This document shows, one piece after another, positions 2,400-12,235 of a stretch of 41,140 bases of DNA. This DNA is from Deltaproteobacteria bacterium. GTDB lineage: Bacteria > Desulfobacterota > Desulfobacteria > Desulfobacterales > ETH-SRB1. The stretch covers positions 1 through 41,140 of the forward strand of contig JAIVWD010000003.1 of the NCBI GenBank assembly GCA_049190315.1, in the 5' to 3' direction. The stretch's first letter is position 1. Every line of letters starts with the position of its first letter. The translations under genes were made by a program, and so were the position numbers. The notes below the pieces were generated by a model. It saw nothing but the letters and a program-made list of their open reading frames with translations. It had not been told where the DNA came from and did no database searches.

Positions 2400-4607
2400 A
2401 TGTCCAAAAAATATTATGCGCACACCTTGGATGGAAAACCACCCTCCGACTGGCAGCCGCTGGAAGAACATCTGAAAAATGTCGCAGAAATGGCCCGATT
2501 GTTTGCTATGGCTTTTGGCGCTGGGGATTGGGGTTATTTGGCGGGGCTGTGGCATGATTTGGGGAAGTATTCCGAGGCATTTCAGCAGCGTCTTGGCACT
2601 GCAGAAGGAACTGACGCACACATTGAAACAAAACCGGGACGCGTTGATCATTCCACTGCCGGGGCACAGTATGCTTTCAATATTCTGAGAGATAAAGGGA
2701 AAATATTAGCTTACGCCATCGCCGGTCATCATGCCGGGCTTCCGAATGGCAAAGCAAATGAAGCTTCAGATCTTACCAGCAGACTTAAAAAAAATGTCCC
2801 CGATTATTCTTTTTTCCCGAATCAACTTTTTAATATCGCTACATTAAACGACCCGCCTTTTATGTTAGATCAAAAGCGTTTTGGATTCCAACTTTCCTTT
2901 TTTGTCAGGATGATCTTCTCAAGTCTTGTCGATGCGGACTTTCTGGATACAGAAGCGTTTATGGATAGCGAAAAATCTTTATGGCGAAAAGGCTATCCCG
3001 ATCTCTCTGAAATGAATAATAAACTGACCTTAGCACTCAACAAACTGATTGAGAGCGCTTCGGATACGCAGATAAATGAACATAGGATAAAAATTTTAAA
3101 AAATTGTCTTGATGCTGCCGAATCCCCGCAGGGCTTGTTTTCTTTAACGGTTCCCACTGGAGGAGGGAAGACTCTTTCGTCTCTCGCTTTTGCAATAAAA
3201 CACGCCCTAAAACACGGTTTTGAAAAAATTATTTACGTTATCCCTTACACCAGTATTATTGAACAAAATGCGGCTGTTTTTCGAGATATTTTCGGAGAAA
3301 ACGCTGTTCTGGAACATCACAGTAATTTTGAGCCGAAAGAAGAAGATCATCGCTCCCGTCTGGCTGCTGAAAACTGGGATGCTCCGCTGATAGTTACAAC
3401 CAATGTACAGTTTTTTGAATCATTATACCGTTGCAGGTCATCACGTTGCAGAAAAATTCATAATATTGCAAAGAGTGTGGTTATATTAGACGAAGCACAG
3501 ATGCTCCCTGTTCCGCTTTTGAGACCCTGCATGGAGGTTTTAAGAGAGCTTTCGTCCACATATAGAACAACAATTGTCTTGTGTACTGCCACTCAGCCAG
3601 CTTTATCGACAAACGAAAATTTTAAAGATGGTCTGGACGGGGTGCAGGAAATTATCCCTGATCCCGCAAAACTTTACAATCTGTTTAAACGCATTCACAT
3701 TGAAATTTTGCCCGTACTTTCTGATGATGTTTTAGCAGACAGACTAAACGCACATGATCAGGTTTTGTGTATTGTAAATACACGTAAACACGCCCGATTA
3801 GTTTTTGAAAGTATTCGAGATCAGGAAGGTTGTTATCACCTTAGCGCTTTGATGTGTCCCGCGCACAGAACAAAGAAGTTTAAAGAAATAAGAAGTGCTC
3901 TTTCCAAAGGTCTCCCTTGCCGAGTCGTAAGCACACAGTTGATTGAGGCTGGGGTGGACATCGATTTTCCCGTGGTATATCGCTGTGCAGCAGGTATCGA
4001 TTCTATTGCACAGGCAGCCGGGCGGTGTAACAGGGAAGGGAAAATACATGAAGGCGGCAAAGTTTATGTCTTTTTATCTGAAACCGGTTTGCCCCCGGGT
4101 CATTTCCGTCATGCAGCCGAGACTGCTGAAGCCGTAGTACGTCATCACGATGATCCTCTGTCGCTTGAAGCCGTTGAAGAGTATTTCAGGACTTTATATT
4201 GGATGAGGGGTGAACGGCTGGATGAACATCAAATCCTTGATGACCTGAACGAAGGGAAACGAAAAGGTGATTTTCCATTCAGGGTTGTGGATAAAAAGTT
4301 CAAAATCATAAAGGATGACATGGAGTCGATTATCATTCCATGGAAGGAGAATGAGCAAGATAAGGATGCCGAAAAAATTATTCAGGGTTTGCGTTATTCT
4401 GAGTATCCCGCAAGCTTGGCGCGCAAAGCTCAGCGTTTTACTGTCCAGGTGCCGCCGCGCGTATTGAGCAGCCTGGAATATGCCGGCAGTGTAGAACGCC
4501 TGCATGATCAGTATTGTGTGCTGATCAATATGGACTTATATCGCGATGATCTTGGACTTTGTTCTGAAGACCCGACTTTTCACAGACCGGAAAGTCTGAT
4601 CGGATAG
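2400..4607 (+). CDS. cas3: CRISPR-associated helicase/endonuclease Cas3 (HD nuclease + SF2 helicase), type I-C context
   Basis: HD motifs GLWHDLGK, DHSTAG and IAGHHAGL. Helicase motif I is VPTGGGKT, motif II is LDEAQ and motif III-like is CTATQP. It heads a cas5c-cas8c-cas7c-cas4-cas1-cas2 set. Confidence 0.95.
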   Translation: MSKKYYAHTLDGKPPSDWQPLEEHLKNVAEMARLFAMAFGAGDWGYLAGLWHDLGKYSEAFQQRLGTAEGTDAHIETKPGRVDHSTAGAQYAFNILRDKGKILAYAIAGHHAGLPNGKANEASDLTSRLKKNVPDYSFFPNQLFNIATLNDPPFMLDQKRFGFQLSFFVRMIFSSLVDADFLDTEAFMDSEKSLWRKGYPDLSEMNNKLTLALNKLIESASDTQINEHRIKILKNCLDAAESPQGLFSLTVPTGGGKTLSSLAFAIKHALKHGFEKIIYVIPYTSIIEQNAAVFRDIFGENAVLEHHSNFEPKEEDHRSRLAAENWDAPLIVTTNVQFFESLYRCRSSRCRKIHNIAKSVVILDEAQMLPVPLLRPCMEVLRELSSTYRTTIVLCTATQPALSTNENFKDGLDGVQEIIPDPAKLYNLFKRIHIEILPVLSDDVLADRLNAHDQVLCIVNTRKHARLVFESIRDQEGCYHLSALMCPAHRTKKFKEIRSALSKGLPCRVVSTQLIEAGVDIDFPVVYRCAAGIDSIAQAAGRCNREGKIHEGGKVYVFLSETGLPPGHFRHAAETAEAVVRHHDDPLSLEAVEEYFRTLYWMRGERLDEHQILDDLNEGKRKGDFPFRVVDKKFKIIKDDMESIIIPWKENEQDKDAEKIIQGLRYSEYPASLARKAQRFTVQVPPRVLSSLEYAGSVERLHDQYCVLINMDLYRDDLGLCSEDPTFHRPESLIG

Positions 4608-4659
4608 ATATGACAATTCAACAACTATACAGCATTACAAAGAAAGCTAAAAAATAATA

Positions 4660-4688
4660 TTGACAAATAGATTTATCAGGTTTATCAT
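4660..4688 (+). promoter_or_regulatory. Near-consensus sigma70-type promoter (TTGACA-17 nt-TATCAT) reading toward the NYN gene and cas5c
   Basis: TTGACA at 4660-4665, a 17-nt spacer at 4666-4682 and TATCAT at 4683-4688. The predicted TSS is about 4695. Confidence 0.6.
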
Positions 4689-4691
4689 TTC

Positions 4692-4710
4692 TTCAATGTA
4701 ATGATTTAAT
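4692..4710 (+). promoter_or_regulatory. PAM-flanked partial protospacer for the mini-CRISPR psi-spacer (candidate Cascade operator)
   Basis: TTC (4692-4694) is followed by AATGTAATGATTTAAT (4695-4710). The psi-spacer 5617-5632 is AATGTGATGATGTAAT, so 14/16 match, with mismatches only at positions 6 and 12. Similarity is lost from position 17 onward. Confidence 0.7.
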
Positions 4711-4754
4711 AAAAACGCACTTACAAAAATAAGATTTTTGCAATATTATTTCCT

Positions 4755-4784
4755 GAAAAAAGAAACGCCCCTTTTCAGGGGCGT
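4755..4784 (-). terminator. Intrinsic terminator oriented for the minus strand
   Basis: An 8-bp GC-rich stem (4765-4772 ACGCCCCT / 4777-4784 AGGGGCGT) with a 4-nt loop. On the minus strand it is followed by TTCTTTTTT. On the plus strand no T-run follows. Confidence 0.6.
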
Positions 4785-4823
4785 CGGTCCAGCGATACTA
4801 TCACTGGAGGGGCTAACTATCTA
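4755..4823 (-). ncRNA. Candidate ~65-70 nt small RNA, antisense to the leader of the NYN transcript
   Basis: Minus-strand promoter-like TTGATT (4858-4853)-17 nt-TATAGT (4835-4830) lies about 45 nt upstream of the minus-oriented terminator. There is no start codon in the interval. It contains CCCCUCC. Confidence 0.3.
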
Positions 4824-4927
4824 ATAAATACTATATGCATACTTAGCTCATAAATCAAGAAAAATTTTCTGTAAATCATACAACAATCAGTAGCAAACAA
4901 AAAAGAACTTACAGGTGCAACTAAAAT

Positions 4928-5548
4928 ATGGAAAGAATAATAGTTTATATTGATGGTTTTAACCTTTATTTCGGGATGAAGGAAAAAGGGTGGCGAAGGT
5001 ATTACTGGTTGAATGTACACTTGCTCGCAAAAAATTTACTCAAGCCTTATCAGAAGCTCATTGAAACAAAGTATTTCACAAGCCGTGTGTCCTCAATGCC
5101 AAATGATCCGGGAAAAGCCAAGCGTCAAGGAGAATATCTGGAAGCCCTTAGTACAGTTCCCATGTGCAAGATTTTTTACGGCCATTATCTCGGGAAAAAA
5201 ATACATTGTAATAAATGCGGTAATTTCTGGACTACCCATGAGGAAAAAATGACGGATGTCAACATTTCTGTTGAACTAATAACAGATGCATATCAAGACA
5301 AATTTGATACTGCATTTCTAATATCTGGAGACAGCGATCTTGTGGGGCCGATCAAAGCTGTTCGTCGCCTCTTCCCGCTGAAGAAGGTAGTTGTGGGATT
5401 CCCACCCTGCAGGCATTCAGCACAATTGAAAAAAGTTGCTAACGCCATTTTTGTCATAAGTCGCAAAAAAATATCGGAAAGTATACTTCCCGATCAAGTA
5501 AGAAAAATCGACGGATATATTTTGCGCAGGCCTGATAGATGGAAATAA
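4928..5548 (+). CDS. NYN domain (LabA-like, PIN-fold RNase superfamily) protein inserted between cas3 and cas5c
   Basis: RIIVYIDGFNLYFG at the N-terminus, EEKMTDVNISVELI, and FLISGDSDLVGPIKAV, which are the acidic motifs typical of NYN/LabA domains. A CxxC (CNKCG) sits between them. SD AGGTG lies at 4913-4917. Confidence 0.75.
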   Translation: MERIIVYIDGFNLYFGMKEKGWRRYYWLNVHLLAKNLLKPYQKLIETKYFTSRVSSMPNDPGKAKRQGEYLEALSTVPMCKIFYGHYLGKKIHCNKCGNFWTTHEEKMTDVNISVELITDAYQDKFDTAFLISGDSDLVGPIKAVRRLFPLKKVVVGFPPCRHSAQLKKVANAIFVISRKKISESILPDQVRKIDGYILRRPDRWK

Positions 5549-5583
5549 CATGACTGACTTTCTGTGTTTTTTAAATCATATAT

Positions 5584-5684
5584 GTCACCCTATTAAATGG
5601 GGTTGTGGATTGAAACAATGTGATGATGTAATTCCAAAAGAAAAGTCGCCCATACTTATTATATATGGGCGTGGATACTTGAAG
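5584..5684 (+). CRISPR. Degenerate mini-CRISPR: psiR1 (5584-5616), 28-nt psi-spacer (5617-5644), psiR2 (5645-5684); CreA/CreR-like
   Basis: psiR1 is GTCACCCTATTAAATGGGGTTGTGGATTGAAAC. Its last 11 nt are identical to the canonical repeat at 12165-12196, and its stem is decayed. psiR2 is GTCGCCCATACTTATTATATATGGGCGTGGATACTTGAAG, with GTCGC plus an 8-bp stem (CGCCCATA/TATGGGCG) retained and the handle decayed. It ends 2 nt before the cas5c SD. Confidence 0.8.
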
Positions 5685-5701
5685 AAAAGGAGGGATACTA
5701 T

Positions 5702-6355
5702 ATGTCTTATGGCGTCAAATTAAGAGTTTGGGGAGAATATGCGTGTTTTACCAGGCCGGAGATGAAGGTGGAACGGGTAAGTTACGATGTGATAACACCA
5801 TCTGCTGCCCGCGGAATTTTGGAAGCAATTTACTGGAAACCGGCAATAAGCTGGGTAGTGGATTGTATCCATGTAATGAATCCTGTGAGATTTGATAATA
5901 TTCGGCGTAATGAACTTGCAGGAAAATTGCCAGTGGGTACGATTAAAAAGGCAATGAAAGACGGTGGTTCTCCTGTTGAGGTCTTTATTGAAGATAATCG
6001 CCAGCAACGTGCGGCAATGGTGCTGCGGGATGTTTCTTACGTCATTGAAGCACATTTTGAGTTTACAGGTTCTGAAGATAATAATGCCGCCAAGCACAAA
6101 GAAATTTTTGACCGCCGCGCTCGCAAGGGACAGTGTTTTCATCATCCTTATCTTGGCTGCCGTGAATTCCCCGCACACTTTGAATTAATAGAGGATGGCA
6201 TTCCGATATCAAAACTTACCGGCAAACAGGATCTGGGATGGATGCTTCACGATATAGATTTTAATAACAACATGGAAGCGAAGTTTTTCAGAGCGGTTAT
6301 GCAAAATGGCATTATTGACGTGCCTCCATTTGACGGACAGGAGGTGAAAGCATGA
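5702..6355 (+). CDS. cas5c: Type I-C Cas5c (Cas5d), the pre-crRNA processing subunit
   Basis: [44 protein letters not shown] is the hallmark Cas5d N-terminus. SD AAGGAGGG lies 7 nt upstream. ATGA overlap with cas8c. Confidence 0.92.
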
Positions 6356-8061
6356 TTCTTCAGGCATTGAGCAGTTATTATGACAGGTTAGAAAAAAATA
6401 CCAATGTGGCTATACCTCTCTTGGGATTCAGTAGTAAGGGAATCAATTTTGCTTTATTGCTCAATCATGAGGGGAAATTGCTTCAGATTCTTGACTTGAG
6501 AGAAACACAGGGAAAAAGATTATTGCCCAAACAGATGATTGTTCCAGAGGCAGTGATTAAATCAGTAAATATTGCCTCAAATTTCATGTGGGACAACACA
6601 GGGTATGTCCTTGGGGCAGATAATAAGGGGAAACCCAAAAGATCCGTGGAAACCTTTGAGGCGTTCAAGAAACTTCATCATGATATTGGTGAAGGGCTTG
6701 ATGATGAAGGCATGATAGCTGTCCTGCAATTTCTGGATTCATGGAATCCTGCGGATGCACCGGAATTGAAATATTGGGATGATATGGTGACAGGGGCGAA
6801 CCTCGTCTTTCAATTGGATGGTGAACTTCGTTACATTCATGATCGGCCAAAGATCAAGGATGCCTGGTTGAAACATTATTCCAAAAATAGTTCAGGAGTT
6901 GTTGCCACATGCCTTGTCTGCGGGGAAGAAAAACCAGTTGCTCGGTTGCATCCTAAAATAAAGGGGGTTAGAGGGGCTCAAACTGCCGGGGCAGCCATTA
7001 TTTCATTTAATCTGGAGGCCTTTCTGTCTTACGATAAAAAACAAAATTTCAATGCGCCCGTCAGCGAGGACATAACCTTTGCCTATACTACTGCGCTCAA
7101 CCATCTTCTCCGCTTTGAAAGTCGCCAGAAAGTCCAGATTGGTGATGCTGCTACGGTTTTTTGGACAGAGAGAGAGTCGCCGATAGAAGGGTTTATGGGG
7201 ATGATTTTTGACCCACAGGATGATTCTGGAGATACAATGGATATTCGCCTGTTTCTGGAGGCAGTAAGGGATGGGAAGATGCCATCAGAAATCGGTGATC
7301 CGGACATTAAATTTTACATTCTTGGTCTTTCTCCCAATGCTTCCCGACTTTCCGTTCGATTTTGGCATGTGAGCACAGTTGGAGATATAGGTGCCAAGAT
7401 TGGTCAACACTTTAAAGACCTGTCCATAATTAAGAATTACGACAGCGATCCGGAATTTCCGGGTATGTGGCAACTTTTAAGGGAAACCGCGATGTTGCGA
7501 AAATCGGACAATATTTCTTCAGTGCTTGCAGGGTCGGTTATGCGCTCAATATTAACAGGCACTGCTTATCCTCAAAGTTTATTGACGGCAATCATAAATC
7601 GCATACGAGCGGATCAAACAGTAAACTATCTGCGTGCGGCACTGATAAAGGCGTGTCTGGTTAGAAAATATCGTATTACCAATAAATCTATGGAGGTAAC
7701 TATGGCATTAAATAAAGAATCAACAGACATTGCGTACCTGCTGGGCAGACTTTTTGCTGTCCTTGAAAAGGCCCAAAAAGACGCCATTCCTGGTGCAAAT
7801 ACAACCATCAAGGACCGTTTTTACGGCTCTGCGTCTGCAACGCCTCGCATTGTATTCCCGCAATTGCTCAGGTTAGCCCAGCATCACATTCAAAAAGCTG
7901 AATACGGGCGCAATACTGACAAAATAATTGAGGAGATCATGCAGGGCATTCAGAAATTCCCCGCTCATTTGAGTTTGGACGATCAGGGTCTGTTTGCTAT
8001 CGGGTATTACCATCAAAGAAAGGCATTCTATACTGAAACAGCAAAAAATAAGGAGAAATAA
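6352..8061 (+). CDS. cas8c: Type I-C large subunit Cas8c (Csd1)
   Basis: The [14 protein letters not shown]-terminus is typical of Csd1. It sits between cas5c and cas7c and is 569 aa long. Confidence 0.88.
7702..8061 (+). CDS. cas11c: Probable internally translated small subunit Cas11c (in frame within the cas8c 3' end)
   Basis: GGAGGT (7692-7697) lies 4 nt upstream of the in-frame ATG 7702 ([12 protein letters not shown]...). This gives 119 aa of helical C-terminal domain. Internal Cas11 translation from cas8 genes is reported for type I-C. Confidence 0.55.
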
Positions 8062-8063
8062 TC

Positions 8064-8951
8064 ATGGCTGAAGCTATTCATAATCGTTACGAATTTGTAT
8101 ATCTTTTTGATGTGGAAAATGGCAATCCCAACGGTGATCCGGATGCAGGCAATATGCCCAGAATAGATCCAGAGACAAGTTATGGGCTTGTCACGGATGT
8201 ATGCCTGAAACGGAAAATTCGTAATTTTGTAGAGATCGTCAAAGGCAATCAATCTCCTCACGAAATCTATATCAGAGAAAAAGCAATCCTGAACCAAACC
8301 CATAAACGGGCACATCAGGCTGTTGGAGTAAAAGATGAGGGTGAGAGCAAAAAACGCAAAGGATCGGGAGCAGATGTTGAAAAGGCCCGTGCCTGGATGT
8401 GCGCCAACTTTTTTGATGTGCGCACTTTTGGCGCTGTCATGTCTACAGGCGTTAATTGTGGGCAGGTCAGGGGGCCTGTTCAACTGAACTTTGCACGTAG
8501 TATAGAATCCATTGTCCCGATGGAAATCAGCATCACCCGTATGGCGGTGACAACGGAAAAAGAGGCCGAACAGCAAAGCGGCGATAACCGAACAATGGGG
8601 CGCAAGCACATCGTTCCTTATGCCCTTTATCGGGCCGAAGGCTATATATCCTCACATTTGGCAACCCAAACAGGATTCACAGAAGAAGATTTAAAGTTGT
8701 TATGGGGAGCACTCATTAACATGTTTGATCATGATCACTCTGCAGCACGGGGGAAAATGAATGCACGCAAATTGATCGTATTTAAACACGACTCAATGCT
8801 TGGAAATGCCCCAGCTCACAAGTTGTTTGACCTTGTAAAAGTAAAACGAGCAACAGATGAATCTATTCCGGCTCGCGCATTTTCAGATTACAATGTTACT
8901 ATAGATCGGAATAATATGCCGCAAGGTATAACTCTCGAAGAAAAGATATAG
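8064..8951 (+). CDS. cas7c: Type I-C backbone subunit Cas7c (Csd2)
   Basis: [47 protein letters not shown] is the Csd2 signature. Confidence 0.92.
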
Positions 8952-8955
8952 CGCC

Positions 8956-9130
8956 ATGTACACCGAAGACGACCTGCTTCCCATCATCGCTTTGTAACAT
9001 TTCAAAGCGGTCGCGCACCCATGACCAAATAGTGCAGGCAGCGCAGAGCGGTAAACAAAATTACGCCCACGGCGTGACCGAGGGGTGCATGGTCTCAGGA
9101 ACTTGTTCATGGCACCTGTATGGCCAGGAA
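8956..9130 (+). pseudogene. Decayed cas4 5' fragment (diverged duplicate of the cas4 start at 9860)
   Basis: ATGTACACCGAAGACGACCTGCTTCCCATCATCGCTTTGTAA encodes MYTEDDLLPIIAL*, compared with intact Cas4 MYSEDDLIPLSALQ. It begins 4 nt after the cas7c stop, the position expected for cas4. Homology is clear for about 45 nt; beyond that only frameshifted traces remain, so the 3' limit is uncertain. Confidence 0.7.
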
Positions 9131-9195
9131 GATATTTATTCTTGATTGAGCCATAAGCGGTTGAAGGAAAAAAGTAGCAACGTGGAGCAATAACA

Positions 9196-9831
9196 ATGAC
9201 TCGAAAAACAGCAAAAAAAATCGAAGACATAAATTCCGATCTTGGCGAAATCGTATTGTATCAGTCTGAGGACGGGCAGGCCGCACTGGATGTTCATCTT
9301 CAGAATGAAACCGTATGGTTGACTCAGGCGCAGATGGAGAAGCTTTTTCAACGGGACCAATCGGTTATTTCCAGGCATGTGAACAATATTTTCAAAGAAG
9401 GTGAACTGCAACGGCGAGGCAATATGCAAAAAATGCATATTGCAAATTCAGATAAGCCGGTTGCGTTTTATAATCTTGACATCATCATTTCTGTTGGCTA
9501 CCGGGTAAAATCTCAACGCGGTACCCAGTTTCGCATCTGGGCTACCACCATTCTAAAAGACCATCTGGTACGTGGTTATTCGCTTAATCAGCGCAGACTG
9601 GCCGCCCATCTCCTCTACTTCGTGATCAAGGATCATCCTTTCACGGATGGTAACAAAAGGATCGGCTCTTTTCTCTTTCTGTTGTTTCTCAAGAAAAATG
9701 ACTTGCTGGATCAAAAAAGCTTCAGCAACAAGGCGCTCGTAGCGCTTGCCCTTCTGACTGCCGCCAGTGAACCGGGGCAAAAGGAATTGATGATTCGGCT
9801 TATTGTGAACCTTATTTCGGAGGAAGGCTGA
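9196..9831 (+). CDS. RhuM-N-terminal domain fused directly to a Fic/DOC core (apparently an internally deleted RhuM/Fic/DOC family protein)
   Basis: The N-terminus (IVLYQSEDGQAALDVHLQNETVWLTQAQM..., VISVGYRVKSQRGTQFRIWAT) is RhuM-like. The C-terminus carries the Fic motif HPFTDGNKR. At 211 aa it is short compared with the roughly 330 aa I recall for this family. Confidence 0.7.
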   Translation: MTRKTAKKIEDINSDLGEIVLYQSEDGQAALDVHLQNETVWLTQAQMEKLFQRDQSVISRHVNNIFKEGELQRRGNMQKMHIANSDKPVAFYNLDIIISVGYRVKSQRGTQFRIWATTILKDHLVRGYSLNQRRLAAHLLYFVIKDHPFTDGNKRIGSFLFLLFLKKNDLLDQKSFSNKALVALALLTAASEPGQKELMIRLIVNLISEEG

Positions 9832-9859
9832 TACTGAAAAGTTTCAGGATTTTTTTCAT

Positions 9860-10510
9860 ATGTACTCAGAAGACGACCTCATTCCCCTCTCCGCCTTGCA
9901 GCATCTGATTTTTTGCGAGCGGCAGTGTGCCCTGATTCACATCGAGCAGGCATGGGCGGAAAACCTTTTTACTGCTGAAGGCAAAATTATGCATGAACGG
10001 GTTCATGAGGCAGACCGGCAATCCAGAGGCAAGGTTCGCATTGAGTACAGCATGTGGCTTCGTTCATTGCGGCTGGGGCTGATCGGCAGGGCGGATGTCG
10101 TCGAGTTTCATCGGAAGCCGGATTTGTTGAAAGCAGGATCGGAAGTATGGGTACCGTTTCCTGTGGAATACAAACGGGGCAAACCAAAGAAAGATAATTG
10201 TGATAAAGTACAGCTTTGCGCCCAGGCTCTGTGCCTGGAAGAAATGCTAAATGTTGAAGTCCCATGCGGTGCGCTCTTTTACGGAAAAAAACGACGGCGT
10301 ACAGATGTTGTCTTTGATGATTTATTGAGACAGCAGACTGAAGACACTGCAATGCGTCTTCACGAACTGATTGCATCAGGCCGGACTCCAAAACCAGTAT
10401 ATATGAAAAAGTGTGACAGTTGTTCACTTGTCAAGATATGTTTGCCGAAAACTATTGAAAGAAAGCGTTCCGTAAAACGCTACTTATCGGGAGTGATTCG
10501 AGAATCATGA
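9860..10510 (+). CDS. cas4: CRISPR-associated exonuclease Cas4 (RecB-like, Fe-S)
   Basis: N-terminal Cys in LIFCERQCAL. RecB-type core ADVVEF ... VEYKRGK. C-terminal CDSCSLVKIC cysteine cluster. ATGA overlap with cas1. Confidence 0.9.
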   Translation: MYSEDDLIPLSALQHLIFCERQCALIHIEQAWAENLFTAEGKIMHERVHEADRQSRGKVRIEYSMWLRSLRLGLIGRADVVEFHRKPDLLKAGSEVWVPFPVEYKRGKPKKDNCDKVQLCAQALCLEEMLNVEVPCGALFYGKKRRRTDVVFDDLLRQQTEDTAMRLHELIASGRTPKPVYMKKCDSCSLVKICLPKTIERKRSVKRYLSGVIRES

Positions 10511-11538
10511 AAAAACATCTTAATACCCTTTTTGTAACTACGCAGGGAGCCTATCTTGCAAAAGAAGGCGAATCGGTTGTCGTAAGAGTGGAAAAAGAAA
10601 CCCGTCTGCGCATCCCTGTTCATACGTTAGGAGGGATTGTCTGTTTCGGCAATGTTGGTTGCAGCCCTTTTTTAATGGGCTTTTGCGCCGAGCGTGATGT
10701 GGCTATCAGTTTTTTATCTGAGTATGGGCGCTTTCTTGCAAGGGTGCAGGGGCCTGTTTCAGGAAATGTCCTGCTTCGCCGAGAGCAGTACCGCAGGGCA
10801 GATGACATGACATTTTCTGCCCAAATGGCAAGATCTGTACTTACCGGTAAAGTTGCCAACTGCCGCACTGTATTGCAGAGGGCATTAAGAGACCACTCCG
10901 ACAAGCTTGATACAGATCAAGTCAGTCAAGCGTCAAGGCAGATTAGCGGTTCTCTGAAGCGCTTGCAGGAAGATGTACCTTTGAATTCCCTGCGGGGCAT
11001 TGAAGGCGACGCTGCACATGTCTATTTTAAAGTGTTTGATCATCTGATTACCTCTCAAAAACAAGACTTCTTTTTCCAGGATCGAAATCGGCGGCCACCA
11101 TTAGATAATGTAAATTGCCTGCTGTCGTTTTTATACACACTTGTAATGCACGATGTCCGTTCTGCCCTTGAATCTGTGGGATTGGATCCGGCTGTCGGTT
11201 TTTTGCACAGAGACCGTCCCGGCAGACCGGGACTTGCGCTCGACCTGATGGAAGAATTTCGTCCTTTTATTGCAGACCGCTTGACGCTTTCATTGATAAA
11301 CCTTTCACAGGTGCAGAAAAAAGGATTTAAAAATTCAGAATCAGGCGCTGTATTGATGGATGACGAAACAAGAAAAATCGTTTTGGTTGCATATCAGAAA
11401 CGAAAACAGGATGAGATAATGCATCCGTTTATTGAAGAAAAGGTCACAATCGGCTTGTTGTTTCATACGCAGGCTTTATTGCTGGCTCGTTACCTGCGCG
11501 GTGATCTGGATGGTTATCCACCTTTTATCTGGAAATAA
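10507..11538 (+). CDS. cas1: CRISPR-associated endonuclease Cas1 (type I-C)
   Basis: LNTLFVTTQGAYL, GIEGDAAHVYF, NCLLSFLYTL, VGFLHRDRPGRPGLALDLMEEFRP are canonical Cas1 motifs. Confidence 0.95.
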   Translation: MKKHLNTLFVTTQGAYLAKEGESVVVRVEKETRLRIPVHTLGGIVCFGNVGCSPFLMGFCAERDVAISFLSEYGRFLARVQGPVSGNVLLRREQYRRADDMTFSAQMARSVLTGKVANCRTVLQRALRDHSDKLDTDQVSQASRQISGSLKRLQEDVPLNSLRGIEGDAAHVYFKVFDHLITSQKQDFFFQDRNRRPPLDNVNCLLSFLYTLVMHDVRSALESVGLDPAVGFLHRDRPGRPGLALDLMEEFRPFIADRLTLSLINLSQVQKKGFKNSESGAVLMDDETRKIVLVAYQKRKQDEIMHPFIEEKVTIGLLFHTQALLLARYLRGDLDGYPPFIWK

Positions 11539-11574: not shown

Positions 11575-11606
11575 GTCGCCTTGGCGCACGGGGCGTGGAT
11601 TGAAAC
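11575..11606 (+). CRISPR. Solitary type I-C repeat between cas1 and cas2
   Basis: GTCGCCTTGGCGCACGGGGCGTGGATTGAAAC is 32 nt. Its 5' GTCGC and the 3' 13 nt (CGTGGATTGAAAC, including the 11-nt handle) match the repeat at 12165-12196. The stem is weaker (4 WC + 2 GU pairs). No partner repeat lies within spacer distance. Confidence 0.8.
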
Positions 11607-11630: not shown

Positions 11631-11921
11631 ATGTTTGTACTGGTCAGCTATGATGTCGCCACAAGTAAGGATGGAGGACCGCGCCGTCTGCGCAGGGTGG
11701 CAAAGGCGTGTCTGGATTATGGGCAGCGGGTTCAATATTCCGTTTTTGAGTGCATAGTCGATCCTGCACAGTGGACGGTTCTTCGCCAAAGGTTAATTGA
11801 TGAAATTGACCCGAATGAAGATAGCCTGAGGTTTTATTTTTTAGGATCAAATTGGAAACGTCGTGTAGAGCATGTTGGAGCTAAAAAGGCGGTCGATCAG
11901 GAGGGGCCGTTGATTGTTTAA
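11631..11921 (+). CDS. cas2: CRISPR-associated endoribonuclease Cas2
   Basis: MFVLVSYDVATS... RRVAKAC.DYGQRVQYSVFEC... 96 aa with the typical Cas2 ferredoxin-fold signature. Confidence 0.95.
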   Translation: MFVLVSYDVATSKDGGPRRLRRVAKACLDYGQRVQYSVFECIVDPAQWTVLRQRLIDEIDPNEDSLRFYFLGSNWKRRVEHVGAKKAVDQEGPLIV

Positions 11922-12164: not shown

Positions 12165-12196
12165 GTCGCTCCCCATGCGGGAGCGTGGATTGAAAC
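12165..12196 (+). CRISPR. Single canonical type I-C repeat (array reduced to one unit)
   Basis: GTCGCTCCCCATGCGGGAGCGTGGATTGAAAC has a perfect 7-bp stem (CGCTCCC/GGGAGCG), a 5-nt loop and the I-C-typical ...GTGGATTGAAAC 3' end. Confidence 0.9.
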
Positions 12197-12207
12197 CAGC
12201 GTAAAAC

Positions 12208-12235
12208 GTGTTCCCCACAGGCGTGGGGATGAACG
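12208..12235 (+). CRISPR. Single type I-E-like repeat 11 nt after the I-C repeat
   Basis: GTGTTCCCCACAGGCGTGGGGATGAACG has a 7-bp stem (TCCCCAC/GTGGGGA). It follows the GTGTTCCCC...GGGGAT.AAC pattern of I-E repeats (compare E. coli GTGTTCCCCGCGCCAGCGGGGATAAACCG). No further unit follows. Confidence 0.75.

Follow-up and report, generated by a model that had tools for sequence, protein, structure and literature searches.

The stretch analysed here comprises 41,140 nucleotides (positions 1 to 41,140 of contig JAIVWD010000003.1) of a Desulfobacteraceae genome and is referred to below as the window. It contains a type I-C CRISPR locus, the Cas5c of which has its closest homolog, 96% identical, in Desulfobacteraceae bacterium Eth-SRB1. 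On the plus strand, cas3, coding for HD nuclease and helicase (2400-4607; Pfam Cas3_HD, DEAD and Cas3-like_C_2), is separated from cas5c (5702-6355; Cas_Cas5d), cas8c (6352-8061; Cas_Csd1) and cas7c (8064-8951; Cas_Cas7) by an inserted cassette. Bordered on the left by cas3, this cassette consists of a predicted promoter (4660-4688), a small RNA gene on the minus strand (4755-4824), a gene for an NYN-domain RNase (4928-5548) and a mini-CRISPR (5584-5685), and the order is identical in related cas3-NYN-cas5c loci. We consider it likely that the cassette is a circuit of the CRISIS type (CRISPR-supervised immune systems), in which type I-C Cascade guided by the mini-CRISPR represses the promoter of the NYN RNase cassette.

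The NYN gene (plus strand) encodes 206 amino acids. Its product contains the Pfam NYN domain (PF01936, E 2.4e-10) and belongs to the HEC-09 family, a defence candidate of PADLOC, the profile of which is matched over its full length (E 2.3e-90; residues 1-206 against profile positions 1-203 of 203). At least 95% of 42 homologs keep acidic active-site residues (D9, D110, D135 and D137) and a Cys-Cys-His cluster (C94, C97 and H104). Searches of NCBIfam and of PDB sequences with the NYN protein retrieved no match.

The mini-CRISPR is located 35 nt past the NYN stop codon and 16 nt before cas5c. Its first repeat, psiR1 (5584-5616, plus strand), is a degenerate I-C repeat with intact 3' end GTGGATTGAAAC, the source of the 5' handle. 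In the I-C repeat of the locus itself, this sequence likewise forms the 3' end and is invariant; in psiR1 it is directly followed by the pseudo-spacer, and the psiR1 handle is invariant in 13 of 14 loci. The pseudo-spacer (5617-5645, plus strand) is 29 nt long, with positions 1-16 constituting the guide and positions 17-29 differing among loci. In the second repeat, psiR2 (5646-5685, plus strand), the hairpin at 5647-5671 is kept, and the degenerate 3' part extends into the cas5c ribosome-binding site. The hairpin is maintained by compensatory changes, its stem being CGCCCATA/TATGGGCG in the window versus CGCCCCTGC/GCAGGGGCG in relatives. Both repeats are thus degenerate, in contrast to the intact repeats of a canonical self-targeting array. 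Such decay, with psiR1 keeping the handle and psiR2 only the hairpin, would fit the expectation for a regulatory guide. Rfam holds no family for the mini-CRISPR region, nor for the small RNA.

Guide, target and their conservation

The promoter preceding the cassette is predicted to be of sigma-70 type, TTGACA-17-TATCAT on the plus strand, with the -35 box at 4660-4665 and the -10 box at 4683-4688. It agrees with the consensus in 11 of 12 positions and is preceded by an A/T-rich tract (4643-4659). Behind it lie, on the same strand, a TTC protospacer-adjacent motif (PAM; 4692-4694) and the protospacer-like target AATGTAATGATTTAAT (4695-4710), which begins 7 nt past the -10 box, approximately at the predicted +1. 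Positions 5617-5632 of the pseudo-spacer, AATGTGATGATGTAAT, are identical with the target in 14 of 16 positions. Mismatches within positions 1-16 occur only at 6 and 12, and positions 17-19 all mismatch; pairing of the 29-nt pseudo-spacer ends at position 16 and complementarity to the target is therefore not full-length.

The first-pass annotation of this DNA had reported the promoter, PAM, target and guide at these coordinates, the 14/16 identity with similarity lost past position 16, and the placement of the site on the predicted +1 (a matter of promoter prediction); all of this was recovered in our analysis. It had further described a strong promoter after cas3. A near-consensus promoter is indeed present there, but it does not stand directly before cas genes and heads the NYN (HEC-09) cassette instead. 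From 4695 to NYN and from NYN to cas5c, the plus strand shows no predicted intrinsic terminator, and a search near the NYN start codon revealed no convincing promoter. This makes the 4660 promoter the best candidate for driving NYN, whose 5' leader, counted from the predicted start, would then measure about 233 nt. The mini-CRISPR and cas5c-cas8c-cas7c may also be fed by it.

The arrangement might alternatively be a non-functional relic or a coincidence, i.e. a decayed self-matching spacer, a chance match or a local duplication. The sequence is A+T-rich and of low complexity, and a plain 16-mer with at most 3 mismatches is expected about 0.9 times per window, which is not significant alone. 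The signal is carried by the PAM together with the 5+1 register, in which every sixth base is left unpaired. Among 1738 TTC-flanked sites on both strands of the window, a single one has no mismatch at the 14 non-flipped positions of 1-16, and the next best has five. In 400 first-order Markov simulations of the window, zero mismatches never occurred and at most one mismatch occurred once. The composition model gives an expectation of 3e-5 zero-mismatch sites per window. No other target of the pseudo-spacer with TTC, TTA, TTT or CTC PAM was found in the window, the next best having at least 4 mismatches. Flanks of the target and pseudo-spacer copies are unrelated, which also speaks against this alternative. 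The match is not due to chance. This had already been argued in the first-pass annotation from 4^17 possible sequences; that calculation takes account neither of the A+T-rich composition nor of the fact that match length was chosen post hoc, but the conclusion stands.

Loci were compared around Cas5c homologs, around NYN homologs and on contigs encoding identical proteins (individual loci are designated by L and a number). The main lineage comprises 13 intact cas3-NYN-cas5c loci, that of the window and 12 related ones, with Cas3 proteins 73-100% identical to that of the window; these loci are related by descent and their counts do not equal 13 independent events. Promoter, TTC and target are kept in all 13, with AATGTnATGATnTAAT directly behind the -10 box, and the pseudo-spacer AATGTnATGATnTAAT likewise precedes cas5c in all 13. 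The TTC is invariant. The -35 box reads TTGACA in 12 loci and TTGATA in the remaining one (L085), and a -10 box of the TAT(C/T)AT type is readable in most.

Spacer and target mismatch at position 6 in nine of the 13 loci, at position 12 in eleven, at positions 9, 15 and 16 in one locus each, and nowhere else within 1-16. Positions 6 and 12 hence hold 20 of the 23 mismatches in this segment, and positions 17-19 mismatch in 11-13 loci. Mean pairwise identity between loci is 1.00 for the PAM and 0.96 for the 14 pairing positions; it amounts to 0.36 at positions 6 and 12, 0.36 in the next 20 nt (17-36) and 0.43 between the promoter hexamers. This pattern indicates that the target is held constant where a Cascade guide pairs and drifts where bases flip out. 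It may be taken as a natural "mutagenesis" read-out of type I-C guide-target pairing, in which only positions 6 and 12 drift over 13 loci, with a sharp stop at 16.

A wholly different matched pair is found in L097 and L103. The order of elements in these loci is NYN, mini-CRISPR, cas3 (only 45% identical), so the cassette is located upstream of cas3 and not of cas5c. The counterpart of their pseudo-spacer AATATCACTATCTCTATTAC is TTC-AATATAAATATATCTATAAA, which lies on the opposite strand and over the -10 region of a TTGACA promoter preceding NYN. The pair mismatches at positions 6, 8, 12, 18 and 20, compared with 8 mismatches at the next best TTC site. L097 and L103 represent an independent lineage, supplying the covariation that the main lineage lacks. 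With this second pair, and with conservation in the 13 loci limited to the PAM and pairing positions, a relic or coincidence is extremely improbable.

In about 20 NYN-free I-C loci related by Cas5c, the 170 nt upstream of cas5c consist of the cas3 3' end and a short gap, without mini-CRISPR. Among Cas5c-related loci, the mini-CRISPR occurs only where an NYN gene is present, and loci with the mini-CRISPR always carry NYN between cas3 and cas5c. In L092 and L093, unrelated coding-looking sequence replaces the promoter and small RNA, and the pseudo-spacer is changed at pairing position 14; this joint decay would be in line with the proposed circuit.

Two further loci have the cassette in decayed form. 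NYN is truncated and the target lost in L058, where the pseudo-spacer is intact, and the 5' part of NYN is deleted in L105.

Probable control of the cassette by Cascade

The mechanism proposed here is derived from published work on CreA, CreR and CRISIS and from the conservation pattern. Cas5c would cut the mini-CRISPR transcript into an RNA resembling CRISPR RNA (crRNA), with an 11-nt 5' handle, the 29-nt pseudo-spacer and a 3' hairpin. Loaded with this RNA, Cascade (Cas5c, Cas8c and Cas7c) would recognise TTC at 4692-4694 and form a short R-loop over protospacer positions 1-16, with bases 6 and 12 flipped out, as the mismatch pattern suggests. The bound complex would cover DNA from just past the -10 box to about +16. 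With its site placed between the -10 box and the predicted +1, it would exclude RNA polymerase and keep NYN off or low. Because pairing stops at position 16, the R-loop would stay incomplete and Cas3 unlicensed, judging from established knowledge of type I Cascade and work on CreA. Loss of Cascade, or a block of it such as by an anti-CRISPR, would allow the promoter to fire and NYN to be made. By analogy with CRISIS and CreTA, the cell might then become dormant or undergo abortive infection, or NYN might act as a second line of defence. Promoter occlusion fits better than an elongation roadblock, because the strand of the target differs between the two lineages, its position being +1 in one and over the -10 box in the other.

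Essentially this mechanism had been put forward in the first-pass annotation, which invoked PAM-proximal partial pairing, every sixth base unpaired, and repression without Cas3 cleavage; it is supported by comparative evidence. The comparison of orthologous loci named there as a check turned out in its favour, both through the 13 loci with promoter, TTC and target and through the different pair of L097 and L103. As for the parallel with CreA and CreR drawn at that time, the mode of partial pairing is supported, but the closest published system is CRISIS, not CreR or the RNA-toxin system CreTA, because the promoter heads the inserted NYN cassette and not cas5c.

CRISIS were described as type I-C systems (Shu et al., bioRxiv 10.1101/2024.12.27.630466). 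They carry defence cargo between cas3 and cas5c and a repeat unit before cas5c, use TTC or TTA as PAM, mismatch their targets at the 6th and 12th positions and PAM-distally, and repress 4.8- to 60-fold as measured. The window shares with the systems presented there a non-cas cargo that separates cas3 from cas5c and is also found elsewhere without CRISPR, a unit of one or two repeats placed directly between the cargo and cas5c, and a TTC-flanked partial match at the cargo promoter, with mismatches at the 6th, 12th and PAM-distal positions. It differs in the cargo, an NYN RNase (HEC-09) accompanied by a conserved antisense small RNA, and in the host, Desulfobacteraceae instead of Neisseria. The cargos listed in the part of that paper considered here are Nezha, Gabija, sole-Sir2, Wukong, Erlang, Tianpeng, Shaseng, Longwang, Guanyin, Tudigong and the SMRD cluster, with no NYN among these. 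The principle of CRISPR supervision is already published; measured against that part of the paper, the novelty lies in the NYN cargo, in the conserved small RNA and in an unusually clean evolutionary trace of the pairing rule. A new class of cargo, an NYN RNase, would join the defence genes under CRISPR supervision, which would also extend to a new bacterial group. Shmakov et al. had predicted, mainly for type I-D loci, that mini-arrays control cargo genes.

Several points weigh against the CRISIS-type circuit. The target of the published CRISIS examples lies 37-46 bp upstream of the start site, a spacing that describes those examples and does not define the class; by promoter prediction, the target in the window is at +1, and that of the second lineage is over the -10 box. 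In the main lineage, pairing positions are near-invariant in both partners, and classic compensatory covariation exists only between the two lineages. The window's own array is down to one repeat, and the activity of its locus is therefore uncertain. On the other side, relatives L004 and L007 have at least 29 I-C repeats at the array site and L005 has at least 6 before the contig end; judged from these arrays, the immune system works in relatives, which favours the circuit. One HEC-09 homolog failed to protect against the coliphages used in its testing (bioRxiv 10.1101/2024.01.29.577857), for which reason the defence role and toxicity of the NYN cargo are putative. Repression, the transcription start, a mature crRNA-like RNA and the sparing of Cas3 are inferred. 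Finally, no convincing sigma-70 promoter for the mini-CRISPR itself was detected upstream of psiR1.

The last point would suit autoregulation of the CreR type, in which the 4660 promoter mainly serves the Cascade genes, with one transcript running through NYN and the mini-CRISPR into cas5c-cas8c-cas7c and NYN as passenger; Cascade would then curb its own production. The absence of predicted plus-strand intrinsic terminators from 4695 to cas5c and the direct continuation of psiR2 into the cas5c ribosome-binding site are consistent with such a transcript. The cassette moreover parts cas5c from cas3; in NYN-free relatives the cas3 end is less than 170 nt from the cas5c start, and both genes are presumably co-transcribed. 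CreR elements usually stand upstream of effector genes, as the mini-CRISPR does here, with a target at the promoter, and type I-C examples were noted from sequence inspection (Liu et al. 2023, bioRxiv 10.1101/2023.03.10.532045). In the window, however, the target promoter is located 1 kb upstream and a cargo gene precedes cas5c. Promoter, target and mini-CRISPR occur only together with NYN and are absent from cargo-free related loci, and the cassette of the second lineage is situated upstream of cas3, not cas5c. A conserved block of about 30 nt (CTTTCTGTGTTTTTT..ATATATG, 5556-5583) adjoins psiR1 upstream and is without a convincing -35 box. Because this block is kept in L089 despite about 170 nt inserted after NYN, the mini-CRISPR and cas5c transcript may have a separate start, which also argues against CreR-type autoregulation. 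We regard the latter as possible but rather unlikely. It could coexist with the CRISIS-type circuit, and whether the locus also acts as CreR depends on read-through into cas5c.

The antisense small RNA and the HEC-09 family

Between the target and NYN lies a near-invariant block of 65 nt, surrounded by variable sequence that takes 140-nt insertions. It corresponds to a small RNA gene of about 68 nt on the minus strand (4755-4824), convergent with and overlapped by the transcript from 4660. Two hairpins follow each other on that strand: P2 (4808-4788), with an invariant GAUAGYAUC apex, and the terminator hairpin P1 (4785-4764), which is succeeded by the U-run UUUCUUUUUU. The predicted small RNA promoter (4830-4858, minus strand) has the -35 box TTGATT at 4858-4853, the -10 box TATAGT at 4835-4830 and an A-tract upstream.

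The small RNA folds with a z-score of -5.15. In an alignment of 33 sequences, 98% of cells are paired, 7 of 13 pairs display compensatory (two-sided) changes and none of 500 shuffles was as good. On the minus strand, about 15 cells form G-U pairs; read on the plus strand, these would be A-C mismatches. Of 39 sequences, 33 have their more stable fold on the minus strand. In 29 of 39 loci, a minus-strand promoter of the form TTGAC(n)-16/18-TAnnnT is present at a similar offset, roughly +88 to +115 relative to the terminator. Existence of the small RNA and its minus-strand orientation are well supported. A cis-regulatory reading of the element on the plus strand was rejected, since the roughly 15 pairs become A-C mismatches and the conserved A-run is left without a role. 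A 28-amino-acid open reading frame (ORF) on the plus strand (4738-4824) was rejected as well, being broken by 1-nt indels in relatives and lying in a region of RNA-type covariation.

A covariance model of the element, R1, yielded 37 matches, all of them antisense to NYN genes; L109 has a second, weaker copy. The element is found once in nearly every NYN locus with upstream sequence, and the model has no match in NYN-free I-C loci. It also precedes NYN homologs of 46-63% identity outside CRISPR loci, while the strong plus-strand promoter upstream of it is specific to CRISPR-embedded versions. The small RNA was thus observed antisense to and upstream of essentially every HEC-09-like NYN gene, in or outside CRISPR loci (window and L095-L135).

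More distant NYN homologs, with 26-33% identity (L141-L144), have a different structured element about 60-130 nt upstream, on the same strand as the gene. It is composed of promoter-like sequence, G+C-rich hairpins and a T-run, a layout like that of type III toxin-antitoxin loci.

A highly conserved RNA element downstream of the promoter brings CreTA to mind (Li et al. 2021 Science; Cheng et al. 2021 NAR, PMC8501985). In an addiction module of this type, the promoter would drive a small toxic RNA (CreT) within 4695-4928 and the mini-CRISPR would be the CreA antitoxin. A mini-CRISPR with a PAM-flanked promoter match inside the cas operon is the layout of CreTA, and the degenerate two-repeat organization with psiR1 handle and psiR2 hairpin is shared too, as would be repression of a promoter inside the cas locus by partially paired Cascade. 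The conserved RNA is nevertheless encoded on the other strand, as indicated by its G-U pairs, U-run and own conserved promoter, and that promoter is without target. On the plus strand, the stretch between target and element is variable and accommodates the insertions mentioned above, and its only ORF is the broken one. NYN genes outside CRISPR loci, furthermore, also have this RNA. Between the target and NYN, the plus strand was found to contain no conserved RNA or ORF, and the gene proposed to be repressed codes for a 206-amino-acid protein nuclease, not for a small RNA toxin. Strict CreTA is excluded because no RNA toxin stands under the promoter, and a CreTA-type module in the wider sense is very improbable.

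Payne et al. (bioRxiv 10.1101/2024.01.29.577857) presented HEC-09 as a putative RNase of MARF1-like character that is embedded in Hma defence systems. The gene of the window agrees with it in its end-to-end profile match and in being embedded in another defence system. It differs in its surroundings, the published genes residing in Hma systems; neither CRISPR control nor a partner RNA is described in that paper. Nothing relevant was retrieved when the literature was searched for NYN proteins paired with an RNA antitoxin. The small RNA could be an antisense or antitoxin-like partner of NYN. As a tentative and somewhat doubtful extension, HEC-09 might be an RNA-protein pair of NYN RNase and the ~68-nt small RNA, in which the small RNA inhibits NYN and loss of Cascade opens a double lock. 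If this is true, loss of Cascade would produce NYN mRNA, a perfect antisense sponge and head-on transcription against the small RNA in one step. Independently of this extension, the locus offers a lead on HEC-09, which showed no activity when tested alone: since a conserved partner RNA and, here, a putative repressor accompany the gene, its activity may appear only once both controls are lifted.

Neighbouring genes and repeats

Downstream of the Cascade genes, the locus continues with cas4 (9860-10510), cas1 (10507-11538) and cas2 (11631-11921). An ORF resembling RhuM/Fic-DOC fragments (9196-9831; PADLOC PDC-S23 and PDC-S05) is inserted between cas7c and cas4, and cas4 has its 5' end in two copies, at 8956-9000 and 9860-9904, which are 78% identical. 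Next to this ORF (region 8956-9904), no unit resembling a repeat was seen.

The CRISPR array of the window consists of a single I-C repeat (12165-12196), followed 11 nt on by one type I-E-like repeat GTGTTCCCCACAGGCGTGGGGATGAACG (region 12165-12235). A lone full-length I-C repeat GTCGCCTTGGCGCACGGGGCGTGGATTGAAAC is present between cas1 and cas2 (11575-11606); the I-C repeat motif was not found at this place in L004, L005 and L007. Sequences following these two I-C repeats (from 11607 and from 12197) are without a PAM-flanked match in the window.

Upstream of cas3, a gene for a DUF1016/YhcG PD-(D/E)XK nuclease (239-1483; PADLOC PDC-S02) is bracketed by 108-nt direct repeats (1-108 and 1575-1682, 82% identity). 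It is followed, still upstream of cas3, by an ORF6N-domain gene (1706-2254; PDC-S05).

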